Positions 4,852 to 62,979 of a stretch of 64,000 nt of DNA are shown in pieces (positions within the stretch are counted from its first letter, which is position 1; each line of letters begins with the position of its first letter). The notes beneath the pieces are model-generated. The model was not told where the DNA came from. It made no database searches and saw only the letters and a list, made by a program, of their open reading frames with translations. Source of the stretch: a virus; IMG/VR virus record IMGVR_UViG_3300037549_000096, one strand, 5' to 3'. Made by a program: the position numbers and the translations under genes.

Positions 4852-5898
4852 TTATACACGACACAAAACGCCCATAATTTTAGTACTATCATTTACGGCT
4901 TGAAGTAATCTCATATCTTTTCCAGCACATAACTTTAAAATATCATTTTTCAAAAATAGTTTTGACGAACTAGCTTTGAAAAAATCAGCTACTACTGCAC
5001 AGTTAAAAATTAAATCGGAATTATCTACTTTGATTTGAGTACTGCCTACTTCAGTTATTCCTATTAGTAAATCTTTCTTAAACTCTAATCGAACATAATG
5101 ATTAGGATTTAATACTGATAATTCTTCCGCTTTCTTTAATGTAATTAATTTTTCACAAAAACCTAAAAACTCATCACTACTAATACTTATAACAGAATTA
5201 TTGGTTTTTTGCACTTCACTAAATAACATTTCAAATTTAGGTATAGTTTTAGAAGAAGTAGAAATCATAACCCATTCTTCATCATTTTTAAAATACAATC
5301 TCCTATTATCCACACAATATGCATCAATGTTACTAGTGACTTTTTGTAATAACTTTAATTCTACAGCTATATTTATATCTGTTTCTGTTGTTTCAAAAAT
5401 AGAAACAGAACGAGATAGTTGACAAATATCATTTCCTTTAATTACAATTAAATCTTCAAAGTCTTTATCCATTCCTTTTACAGTTTTAAAGTGCATTCCC
5501 CTAATTGTTATTAATTTTTCCTCAAAATTAGGAGGAACAGGTATCCAGTTTTGAGGTTTTGGTATATAGAACACAGTGTCTACATCCATTATTGGAATAG
5601 CTGCTTTATCTTCTTCATTTTCCATAGAAAGTTTATTTTTATTAATCTTAATTTCTATGTTAGCATTTGAGTCAAATACTTTAAGAGCAGCTTCAAGAGC
5701 AAAAATGTTAACTGCACATTCCATATCTTTCATATCTACACTTAAAATAGTATTAATACAAATACCAGTCATACCATTACTGGCTCGTAATTCAAAAATA
5801 CCATTTTTAACCTTAAATACACAGTTCTGAGCAAAATCGCCTTTTCCTGAAAATTCGCATCCTCTTGTTACAATTTTTCTAAGAACACTACTTAACAT
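4852..5898 (-). CDS. dnaN: DNA polymerase sliding clamp (beta-like), divergent
   Basis: 348 aa, beta-rich repeated architecture, ELRASNG and PKFEMLF segments, C-terminal GVLCRV; replisome context. Confidence 0.6.
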   Translation of the reverse strand: MLSSVLRKIVTRGCEFSGKGDFAQNCVFKVKNGIFELRASNGMTGICINTILSVDMKDMECAVNIFALEAALKVFDSNANIEIKINKNKLSMENEEDKAAIPIMDVDTVFYIPKPQNWIPVPPNFEEKLITIRGMHFKTVKGMDKDFEDLIVIKGNDICQLSRSVSIFETTETDINIAVELKLLQKVTSNIDAYCVDNRRLYFKNDEEWVMISTSSKTIPKFEMLFSEVQKTNNSVISISSDEFLGFCEKLITLKKAEELSVLNPNHYVRLEFKKDLLIGITEVGSTQIKVDNSDLIFNCAVVADFFKASSSKLFLKNDILKLCAGKDMRLLQAVNDSTKIMGVLCRV

Positions 5899-56174: not shown

Positions 56175-56204
56175 AATGGGACGATCTTTGATTGTCCCAT
56201 TTTT
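56175..56204 (+). terminator. intrinsic terminator after ssb
   Basis: AATGGGACGATC-TTT-GATTGTCCCATT-TTT. Confidence 0.8.
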
Positions 56205-56221
56205 GTGAAAAAGGAAATATT

Positions 56222-57139
56222 ATGAATTTAAATACAGGAATTTATTGTATTAAAAATCTAGCAAATGGTAATTGTTATATTGGATCATCTGTAAATATTA
56301 GACTAAGATGGCATGAGCATAAATATGAATTAAAAAACAATAAACATCACTCTAGACATTTACAAAATGCATATAATAAATATGGAATTGAATTATTTGA
56401 ATTTAAGATTTTAATAAATTGTGAAGTATGTGAATTGCTTACCATAGAACAACAATTTATAGATTCTTTTAAACCTAAATATAATGTATTAAAACTTGCC
56501 GGATCACCACTAGGATGTAAAAGAACAGAAGAGTCTAAAAGAAATATGTCTATAGCTCAAAAAGGGAAAATAGTCACAGAAGAAACTAAAAGAAATATGT
56601 CAATTGCTCAGACTGGTAAAGTTTTATCTAATAAAACTAAAGAAAAAATATCAAAATATCACACTGGAAAAATAATAACTAATGAAACAAAACAAAAAAT
56701 ATCTATAGCAAGATTAGGAATAGTATTCTCAGAAAAAACTAAAAGAAAAATGTCAATAGCTCAAACTGGTAGAACCTGTTCAGAAGAAACTAAAAGAAAA
56801 GTATCATTAGCTGTTCTAGGACGTAAACATTCTGAAGAATCTAAAAGAAAAATGTCATTAGCTCAAAAAGATAGAATTACGTCTGATGAAACAAAGCAAA
56901 AACAATCTTTAGCACATTTAGGATATAAAGCATCTGACGAAACAAAAAAGAAAATGAGTTTACGTGTAAGTGGTGATAAAAGTCCTACTGCTAAATTAAC
57001 ATGGGAATTAGTTAACGAAATTAGAGAATTATATGCAACTAGAAAATTTTCACAACGTAAGTTAGCAAAATTATTTAATGTTACTCAACCTAATATTGGT
57101 GCTATAGTAAGAAATGAAACATGGATTGTTAATAATTAA
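56222..57139 (+). CDS. GIY-YIG homing endonuclease with NUMOD3 repeats and C-terminal HTH
   Basis: GIYCI...YIGSS; about nine 17-aa SEETKRKMS-like repeats. Confidence 0.92.
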   Translation: MNLNTGIYCIKNLANGNCYIGSSVNIRLRWHEHKYELKNNKHHSRHLQNAYNKYGIELFEFKILINCEVCELLTIEQQFIDSFKPKYNVLKLAGSPLGCKRTEESKRNMSIAQKGKIVTEETKRNMSIAQTGKVLSNKTKEKISKYHTGKIITNETKQKISIARLGIVFSEKTKRKMSIAQTGRTCSEETKRKVSLAVLGRKHSEESKRKMSLAQKDRITSDETKQKQSLAHLGYKASDETKKKMSLRVSGDKSPTAKLTWELVNEIRELYATRKFSQRKLAKLFNVTQPNIGAIVRNETWIVNN

Positions 57140-58318: not shown

Positions 58319-58816
58319 TTATTCGACTTCTTTTGAATCCTTTGCTACATCGACCATACCAAGATCAATAAAAATATCCGCAACATCGAGAAGTTTGTTA
58401 GACATTGAATCTCGGAAACCAGCAACAACAATACGAATATCACGATCTTGGAGTTTTCCAAGCGTGTATGCAAAATCTTCGTCACCACTTACTAGAATGA
58501 TTGTATCGATATTATTAATTACCGATAACATCATATCAGTAGCAATTTCAACTTCCAAATGCGCCTTACGAGTATTAGTATCACGATCTTGCTTAACTTC
58601 CTTCTTTACTACTCGCCAACCATTATGAGTCATCCAATGAAGGAAACTACGCTGCTTTTCTGCGTTAGCATCACTTCCTGTATAAAATACAGCTTTTTGA
58701 TATTCCTGTCCTTCTGTAAGAACGTTTAAAAGCTTGTTATAATCAATCTGCACATTAGCTTGCATTGCAGAATGGAAAATATTATTGCCATCAACAAAAA
58801 TAGCTGTCTTATTCAT
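58319..58816 (-). CDS. NYN-domain (LabA/DUF88, PIN-like) protein
   Basis: IFVDGNN...LVSGDEDF...S..L...AD.FIDL. Confidence 0.92.
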   Translation of the reverse strand: MNKTAIFVDGNNIFHSAMQANVQIDYNKLLNVLTEGQEYQKAVFYTGSDANAEKQRSFLHWMTHNGWRVVKKEVKQDRDTNTRKAHLEVEIATDMMLSVINNIDTIILVSGDEDFAYTLGKLQDRDIRIVVAGFRDSMSNKLLDVADIFIDLGMVDVAKDSKEVE

Positions 58817-61762: not shown

Positions 61763-62035
61763 TAGAGGGCAGAATCTACACGCCTCATTCTGCGGTTTCC
61801 CATTTTTCGGCGTAGTTCCAAAATGTTTACCCTGTCAGTAAACATTAAGTGTAGCAGGGAAATTCTTTTGCCTTTTATCGAGGTTGATAGGAAGGATTGC
61901 GAATCCACCTTATGATAAGCAAGTAACAATCGCCATTGTTACGCCAAATGAAATCATATCAAATGGTCTACTTATTCTCGCCTAGTTTAATACTGCGTAG
62001 ATACTAGGAAACTACTGTTTAGGTCTTATATCCAA
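61763..62035 (-). ncRNA. unassigned structured RNA (element B)
   Basis: Hairpins with complementary loop partners. Confidence 0.5.
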
Positions 62036-62050
62036 TCTAGGAATGCCTAT

Positions 62051-62126
62051 TGGATGAGGGACTTGGACTCGAACCAAGGAAAAGCAGGATCAAAACCTGC
62101 CGCGTTAACCACTCCGCCATCCCCCA
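62051..62126 (-). tRNA. tRNA-Gln(UUG)
   Basis: U1-A72; GCAGG-TTTTGAT-CCTGC; T arm; encoded CCA. Confidence 0.95.
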
Positions 62127-62323
62127 ACGTTAAAAGAACAGTTTTTCTTACTCTCGGATAAACTGAAAAACCTCAATCAGAGATATTTTAATTGGCTCTG
62201 ATTAGTTTCTTGTTTGCTACCCCCACGAAATAGCCTACGCACAATGTTCTATTAAAAAAGGCGCGATATGCTGTTTCCGACCAGAAGTAGCATACTCACT
62301 TCACGCATTCTCTAGGAATGCCT

Positions 62324-62511
62324 TGGAGATATTATGCTTAACGTGGATATAGTGGTTTTACCGTAAAGATGAACTACTTTTCCAACCAGTAAGGTAAGTA
62401 GCTGAAGGTTTTGTTCTATCTGGAGTGAAAGAAACCTACAAATAAGACTCCTTTCCGACTGAAACTTTGGTGGGCCATCGGAACACCACTCGAAGGTGGG
62501 TGCATAGTATC
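62324..62511 (-). ncRNA. 188-nt CCA-terminated pseudoknot-rich RNA (element C)
   Basis: Closing stem GATACTATGC/GCATAATATC plus TCCA. Confidence 0.55.
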
Positions 62512-62553
62512 AACCGCTTCTAGTTCTTGTTAAATAAGCTAGAAGGTTATGAT

Positions 62554-62979
62554 TGGTGGAGGTAGCGAGAGTCGAACTCGCGTCTTAGAAGTGCTTTGAG
62601 GTAATTCGTTCACAAGCTTAGTCTATTTTTATGACTGATTCTCTATATGGAAATTAGACAACCATATTCAAGAAACTAACAGATTATTCTGTCCTAGTAT
62701 ACTGTTATCAACTAGGCTATACTTCTTTACTTGCTTTCGATCAAGTCTACTAACAAGTCTTTAACGTGATGGTTATTGAAGACTAACCATTACACGCCTT
62801 CTTCTTTTGAAATTAAGCAGCCTTGAGAGCAACCATTTCAAAAGAAGGAACGAAGGAACCGAAGAAAGAAAATACATTCTTGGCGTTTAGTTTTTGATCG
62901 GCTTTTAACGCGGCCCACTGATCAACCTCGGCTTGCATTACGATCTTAGTTCACAACCAATCGAAACCGTGATACCCCC
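62554..62979 (-). ncRNA. ssrA: tmRNA
   Basis: GGGGGTA/TACCTCC-ACCA with G3.U70; T arm GCGAG-TTCGACT-CTCGC; tag frame 62813-62884 (AKNVFSFFGSFVPSFEMVALKAA*). Confidence 0.95.

Follow-up and report, generated by a model that had tools for sequence, protein, structure and literature searches.

Genomic context of the spacer

The window, meaning the whole 64,000-nt stretch of IMG/VR virus record IMGVR_UViG_3300037549_000096 that was analysed, is an AT-rich phage-like contig (about 31% GC) carrying a DnaE-type polymerase, an SSB and a homing endonuclease. Its minus strand encodes, in order, tRNA-Met, tRNA-Asn, two small ORFs, a tmRNA, a spacer, tRNA-Gln, further ORFs and tRNA-Lys (Table 1). The tmRNA is a complete one-piece molecule, with positions 1-374 of the RF00023 model all matched, and 42 nt separate its CCA end from a downstream 188-nt element that the initial annotation described as an RNA closed by an acceptor-like stem. 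The placement of this element between the tmRNA and tRNA-Gln is confirmed by both ARAGORN and Rfam.

Elsewhere in the window, a 165-aa NYN-domain protein (58319-58816, minus strand; Pfam E = 5e-30), a candidate phage RNA-processing nuclease, is encoded about 3.5 kb downstream of the tRNA/tmRNA cluster and on the same strand, and every related contig has kept its gene. The SSB gene is adjoined by a homing endonuclease ORF of the GIY-YIG/HNH type (56192-57139, plus strand), which is absent at that position in the related contigs L001 and L007.

Table 1. Positions of the tmRNA, the spacer with its modules and helices, and tRNA-Gln in the window.
Feature	Position	Strand	Remarks
Phage tmRNA, 426 nt	62979-62554	minus	ARAGORN and Rfam RF00023, 111 bits
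Spacer, 427 nt, non-coding	62553-62127	minus	between tmRNA and tRNA-Gln
188-nt element	62511-62324	minus	between tmRNA and tRNA-Gln
M0, variable hairpins	just after tmRNA CCA		L016, L012, L009, L018, L022; differs per lineage; none in window
M1, three hairpins	62553-62455	minus	window, L016, L012, L009; absent in L005, L001, L018, L022
M1 hairpin P1	62545-62539/62523-62517	minus	2 compensatory pairs
M1 4-bp hairpin	about 62499-62486	minus	'T-arm' of the initial annotation in another register
M1 stem P2	62483-62477/62459-62453	minus	1 compensatory pair (C-G to A-U)
M2, conserved core, about 106 nt, two tandem H-type pseudoknots	62454-62349	minus	6 lineages: window, L016, L012, L009, L005, L001; start only in L022
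M2 first knot, H1	62451-62447/62426-62422	minus	
M2 first knot, PK1	62437-62432/62411-62406	minus	
M2 second knot, H2	62403-62396/62379-62372	minus	
M2 second knot, PK2	62388-62384/62357-62353	minus	
M3, five-hairpin domain	62348-62177	minus	5 lineages: window, L016, L012, L009, L005
M3 hpA	62321-62305	minus	
M3 hpB	about 62295-62266	minus	
M3 hpC	62264-62260/62242-62237	minus	
M3 hpD	62234-62216	minus	
M3 hpE	62202-62176	minus	
M3 long-range pairing, 5 bp	62346-62342 with hpD loop 62227-62223	minus	invariant
M4	62176-62127	minus	leader hairpin 62165-62139 directly 5' of tRNA-Gln
tRNA-Gln (UUG)	62126-62051	minus	ARAGORN and Rfam; downstream neighbour of spacer

Modular organisation of the spacer in related lineages

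Relatives were located through two neighbouring ORFs, of 171 aa and 85 aa, whose homologues led to syntenic metagenomic contigs with the same tmRNA and a near-identical 23-aa tag, followed by tRNA-Gln. The spacer lineages obtained are the window, L016, L012, L009, L005/L006 and L001-L004, together with a partial copy in L022, and comparisons draw on five to six distinct lineages at about 80-85% identity. The presence or absence of each module was read from a MAFFT alignment of the spacers.

In this alignment the spacer is divided into modules M1 to M4, and in several relatives the tmRNA is followed by the variable hairpins of M0. The hairpins of M3 are enclosed by a further helix, and M4, unlike the other modules, occurs in every lineage with tRNA-Gln, including L018 and L001. 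The 188-nt element starts in the middle of M1 and stops 24 nt into M3; the 5' strand of its supposed closing stem (62511-62502) lies inside M1, the 3' strand with the 'CCA' (62337-62324) lies inside M3, and the RNA ends that had been proposed at 62511 and 62324 match no module boundary in relatives. The element is an arbitrary slice of a modular spacer, running from mid-M1 to early M3.

The modules vary considerably in their presence. L018, L019 and L020 keep the tmRNA and tRNA-Gln with M4 alone between them, L001 has kept M2 and lacks M3, and in L007 and L008, which are without the tmRNA, tRNA-Asn directly abuts tRNA-Gln. The tmRNAs of L012, L018 and L022 are 99-100% identical, and are followed by M1-M4, by M4 only, and by an HNH-like ORF and then M2, respectively, indicating that M1-M3 are dispensable. 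M1-M3 behave as cassettes exchanged among very close strains, although such modular loss could also reflect only weak selection on the modules.

The fixed position of the spacer raises the alternative that it acts in cis, aiding the maturation of tmRNA and tRNA-Gln as a folding insulator, nuclease entry site or roadblock, and that the excised RNA has no function. M2 starts close behind the tmRNA CCA in L001 (7 nt) and L005 (18 nt), M4 stands directly before tRNA-Gln in every lineage, and the conserved NYN-domain nuclease gene lies downstream on the same strand. However, L018, L019 and L020 keep both genes with M4 alone beside a tmRNA that is 99-100% identical to that of L012, with its full M1-M4 set, from which it follows that M1-M3 are not needed in cis. 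The intricate long-range pairings also exceed the needs of an insulator, and a look-alike of H2/PK2 follows an ORF in an unrelated viral contig without a tRNA in its 14.4-kb locus (see below). With these points weighed, a cis-acting spacer is considered rather unlikely.

Several further observations were made at the same locus in relatives. The ORF of L022 (1523-2143) encodes 206 aa with weak similarity to HNH/DUF559 endonucleases and is inserted exactly at the tmRNA/M2 junction, and L012 retains about 25 nt matching the 3' end of the inserted sequence; for mobile endonucleases, the site behind the phage tmRNA has the look of a hotspot. In L012 (1279-1330), L018 (2443-2490) and L022 (1476-1520) the tmRNA is directly followed by a perfect hairpin, about 15 bp long, whose 5' arm is a repeat of the word that forms the acceptor 3' strand in the window-type tmRNA. 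ARAGORN misses the tmRNAs of all three contigs, and their Rfam scores are only 66-69 bits, compared with 102-120 bits in other lineages, and this, together with the hairpin, may be a trace of tmRNA 3'-end replacement.

Two group I introns of L009 (2254-2495 and 2760-2995) reach the Rfam gathering score and are tRNA-proximal, beside an HNH_3 ORF. The same contig carries a tRNA-Gln-like gene (5575-5660) that neither ARAGORN nor Rfam (at the gathering score) detects. It can be aligned with the tRNA-Gln of the window over the anticodon arm, most of the T-arm and the 3' end, and relative to that gene its D-arm region contains a 12-nt insertion. Unusually long tRNA calls in L016 (5811-5910, a 100-nt Rfam tRNA) and L009 (4221-4313, a 93-nt 'tRNA-Ile (UAU)') may contain an intron or insert.

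Covariation support for the modules

Pairing was compared with slid controls, in which the partners were moved by 1-3 columns; these are safer than shuffle statistics, which related sequences can inflate. When the M2 copies of six lineages are aligned with their structure taken into account, 91.7% of cells pair, compared with 31-49% in slid controls, and seven compensatory pairs are present, of which two fall in H1, one in PK1 and four in H2. The tandem pseudoknots seen in the initial annotation hold for the first knot, where H1 and PK1 both covary as expected of an H-type pseudoknot, and hold in part for the second, where H2 covaries and PK2, which is 100% paired and invariant in the six lineages, is consistent with the pseudoknot model. 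For M3, 99.6% of cells are paired in five lineages (33-48% in slid controls), with seven compensatory pairs in hpC (two), hpD (four) and hpE (one).

In the four full-length copies, P1 has two compensatory pairs and P2 has one, and RNAalifold predicts 101 pairs from these copies, 13 of them compensatory. PK2, PK3, hpA and hpB never vary and are therefore neither supported nor refuted by covariation. About 35 G-U cells in the helices would become A-C mismatches if read on the plus strand, which places the RNA on the minus strand, as are the tRNAs. Together, H1, PK1, H2 and P2 behave as real minus-strand RNA structure.

L009, the most divergent lineage, is partly misaligned by the model and was read directly. 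Here PK1 is rebuilt as a 5-bp G-C-rich helix in which G-C pairs replace U-A pairs, H2 is rebuilt as an entirely different perfect 6-bp stem around an identical 16-nt loop, and PK2 is extended to 7 bp.

These changes bear on a second alternative, in which the spacer is non-functional debris of recombination and mobile-endonuclease traffic and owes its apparent conservation to close kinship. The cassette-like insertions and deletions among near-identical strains would fit such an origin, as would the HNH-like ORF at the tmRNA/M2 junction of L022 with its remnant in L012, and the overall spacer identity of about 80%, which is similar to that of the tmRNA itself. Debris is nevertheless a very unlikely explanation, given that compensatory changes occur in eight helices of M1-M3 where slid controls yield 0-2, that L009 has rebuilt H2 and PK1 with different letters, and that the pseudoknot loops are invariant while their stems vary. 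As judged from covariation, the spacer is a new structured-RNA motif of a known general kind.

The proposed tRNA-like element

Re-reading of the sequence recovered all motifs named in the initial annotation at their minus-strand coordinates, including the strands 62511-62502 and 62337-62328, which form nine of ten pairs and are followed by T-CCA (62327-62324), and a 4-bp hairpin with a T-loop-like loop of 7 nt (62498-62484). From these motifs the 188 nt had been interpreted as a mimic of tRNA or tmRNA with an acceptor-like stem and N-CCA end, which would undergo tRNA-like processing and would either be chargeable or serve as a decoy for defence nucleases that target tRNA. The element is located in a tRNA operon, and its closing stem appears in single-sequence minimum-free-energy and centroid folds of the 188 nt. 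L012 deletes the single mismatched base of the stem, and about eight pairs remain possible in L009 after a register shift, so that the stem is unsupported rather than disproved.

Single-sequence statistics are modest. The RNAfold minimum-free-energy z-score is unremarkable for both the 188 nt (-0.91) and the 427-nt spacer (-0.86). About 3.7 stems with nine of ten pairs are expected per dinucleotide-shuffled spacer and three were observed, so the closing stem alone is not beyond chance; the combination of such a stem with N-CCA directly behind it, which speaks for a mimic, occurs in just 4% of shuffles.

In relatives, the acceptor stem, T-loop and CCA end all fail to hold. The closing stem has no compensatory pairs in the four full-length copies, four of its pairs are broken in L009 and one varies one-sidedly; L005 has the 3' strand without any 5' strand, and both strands are absent in L001. 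Each of the four relatives with this segment (L016, L012, L009 and L005) has CCC in place of the terminal CCA. The T-loop C is replaced by T in L016 and by A in L012 and L009, and two of the four stem pairs are broken in two of four sequences; the conserved register of this 'T-arm' in RNAalifold has four invariant pairs and a 6-nt loop.

Both strands of the closing stem also have other conserved partners. RNAalifold omits the stem and instead pairs the first bases of its 5' strand with an upstream ATCA (ATCA with TGAT), and the 3' strand pairs, when M3 is folded alone, with a perfect 6-nt complement about 40 nt downstream within M3, in all five lineages including L005. Covariation among homologues upholds the inner hairpins, the first pseudoknot and the P2 stem of the initial annotation and leaves its closing stem without support.

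The view that the element is not a cloverleaf agrees with ARAGORN, which finds nothing in 62511-62324. ARAGORN and RF00005 together give four true tRNAs only, none of them in this interval at E up to 10. The tmRNA models (RF00023 and the permuted RF04321) detect the true neighbouring tmRNA and weak permuted matches only, the latter anchored on the T-arm of the true tmRNA and scoring 15-20 bits compared with a gathering score of 47; at E up to 10, the element itself has no match to tRNA, tmRNA or Y RNA. Descent from a decayed tmRNA duplicate, or identity with a permuted tmRNA, was also considered and rejected, as there is no paralogy beyond 7-9-mers and a second GGGGGTA word is not conserved. 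On the evidence of the relatives, the tRNA-mimic model appears largely refuted and is regarded as highly improbable; the region resembled a tRNA mimic because a chance stem happened to be followed by CCA, a misreading that is now corrected.

A 13-nt word at 62323-62311 recurs at 62048-62036, 2 nt past tRNA-Gln, and is the sole significant internal repeat of the cluster. The first copy forms the 5' half and loop of hpA, and the post-Gln copy sits in a different hairpin. Both copies are kept in L009 (5389 and 5651), the post-Gln copy is missing in L001, L005, L012 and L016, where other sequence follows tRNA-Gln, and CCC, not CCA, stands just before the M3 copy in relatives. Instead of serving as a 3'-processing signal behind CCA, the word could mark a recombination junction or be bound by a protein.

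Known RNA families, coding potential and signals

In line with the initial annotation, the element belongs to no Rfam family: no match to the spacer was obtained at E up to 10 on either strand (window positions 61900-62700), or to the spacers of L004, L005 and L012, and the covariance models of GOLLD, ROOL and Y RNA likewise gave no match at this threshold in the same sequences. The spacer contains no ORF of at least 30 aa, which agrees with the earlier remark that no tmRNA-like tag frame is visible.

Other candidate features of the spacer were rejected. A small ORF behind a Shine-Dalgarno-like AAGGAG has its frame closed in relatives. A putative internal promoter (62533-62504) is not conserved, and the count of promoter-like sites equals the shuffle expectation. 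The T run at about 62258, which had suggested a terminator, belongs to a segment that forms the 5' strand and loop of the covarying hpC, and a minus-strand scan identified no terminator site within the spacer. A family of M2 pseudoknot arrays in the window was also dismissed, since a search with the covariance model gives a single copy in each genome and all other matches have E > 0.1.

H-type pseudoknots are typical small aptamers, and the spacer could on this ground be a riboswitch- or T-box-like sensor RNA, in which UGGUU pairs with AACCA or with an uncharged NCCA end, or M2 binds a ligand, controlling read-through into tRNA-Gln. The UGGUU/AACCA pairing is invariant in six lineages and mutually exclusive pairings exist in M3. 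However, there is no terminator or other expression platform between M2 and tRNA-Gln, the spacer has no riboswitch or T-box match in Rfam, no regulated ORF lies downstream, and L001 keeps M2 without M3. A sensor is accordingly the least probable of the explanations considered here.

Wider searches and a look-alike of H2/PK2

Searches beyond the syntenic contigs returned few sequences. The region had no blastn match in INPHARED (50,697 phage records), scans of IMG/VR with exact words from the element and the tmRNA gave 0 matches, and protein-anchored scans of IMG/VR found no relatives. A metagenome scan with a conserved 19-mer returned one known relative and two chance matches, which lie in GC-rich and in coding DNA, respectively, and a scan of genome contigs with the M3 pattern gave 0 matches. 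A further contig, L102, did not extend to the spacer.

A degenerate H2/PK2 pattern had 73 matches in genome contigs, which is about the chance number, and a few chance matches to the pattern alone are expected in IMG/VR. The covariance model then retained one weak genome-contig candidate (L049) and an IMG/VR group formed by L023 (4504-4610), L026 and L027. The group shares the same H2 loop and PK2 target words with the window and has a different perfect 6-bp stem, and its PK2 is longer by one G-C pair. The look-alike is intergenic, just past an ORF stop, in a 14.4-kb locus without a tRNA, and the phage that carries it has no detectable protein similarity to the window phage. Given the extra stem and flanking identities, this look-alike is likely, but not proven, to be homologous to H2/PK2.

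Proposed role and relation to known phage RNAs

The overall model that is probably correct regards the 188 nt as a slice of a spacer composed of independently folding modules, gained or lost separately, which is released as accessory ncRNAs that act in trans. The spacer would be co-transcribed with the tmRNA and tRNA-Gln, as suggested by their common strand, gaps of 0-42 nt and the lack of a terminator between them. It would then be freed by the host enzymes that mature the tmRNA 3' end and by the RNase P cut at the 5' end of tRNA-Gln, and may persist as one or more compact accessory ncRNAs, stabilised by their pseudoknots and comparable in this to T4 RNAC/RNAD, GOLLD and ROOL. We infer that the spacer RNA is transcribed, processed and stable. 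Since strains of the L018 type retain the two flanking genes although M4 is their only module, the modules would be accessory and not required in cis. It may be speculated that the spacer RNA acts in trans by binding or sequestering a host or phage factor, and not as a tRNA surrogate.

A bolder proposal treats the entire 427-nt spacer as an undescribed ornate trans-acting phage RNA, in which no fewer than 11 helices combine with three long-range pairings of pseudoknot type, and M2 as a portable block also present in unrelated phages; this is unlikely. Were it so, the invariant UGGUU loop might capture the NCCA ends of tRNA and tmRNA, or a higher-order particle like those of ROOL and GOLLD might form.

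The closest parallels to the accessory RNAs proposed to be released from the spacer come from other phage tRNA regions. RNAC and RNAD of T4 (species 1 and 2 stable RNAs) are small ncRNAs of unknown function encoded in the phage tRNA cluster on the tRNA strand (PMC3014915), and both have been confirmed by Northern blot (PMC9697503). The spacer is likewise encoded within a tRNA cluster, on the tRNA strand and with no intervening terminator. Unlike the T4 RNAs, the putative RNA is modular and pseudoknot-rich; it has no sequence similarity to them, as the INPHARED search, which should include T4, found nothing.

GOLLD and ROOL are phage or prophage RNAs that often lie by tRNA islands and contain multiple pseudoknots and multistem junctions, with no known function (PMC5737381; 10.1101/2024.12.08.627333). 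The spacer resembles them in its proximity to phage tRNAs and its several pseudoknots, but it lacks an Rfam match at E up to 10 and is 427 nt long, compared with about 580-800 nt. The independent loss of its parts also argues against one obligatory global fold.

In the PK2-PK4 string of tmRNA and in the tRNA-like 3' ends of plant viruses, consecutive H-type pseudoknots adjoin a tRNA-like module, and the tandem H-type pseudoknots of M2 recall both this string and the upstream pseudoknot domain of the plant viruses. Unlike PK2-PK4, M2 lies outside a complete one-piece tmRNA, has no sequence paralogy to it and contains no tag frame. The tRNA mimics among bacterial and phage Y RNAs (YrlA) are comparable through the end-to-end stem and T-arm-like module described in the initial annotation; the spacer differs from them in having no Rfam match at E up to 10 and in that neither the end-to-end stem nor the T-loop is conserved. 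No Rsr/Ro gene was found among those window ORFs that were scanned. The spacer resembles T4 RNAC/RNAD, GOLLD and ROOL in kind, and neither its sequence nor the covariance models make it a member of any of these families.

Structured RNAs of unknown role recur in phage tRNA islands, as T4 RNAC/RNAD, GOLLD and ROOL illustrate. The present locus is a further example, supported by covariation, unclassified in Rfam and placed immediately after a phage tmRNA, and because close strains differ in which of its modules they carry, it offers ready-made deletion variants for testing such RNAs.
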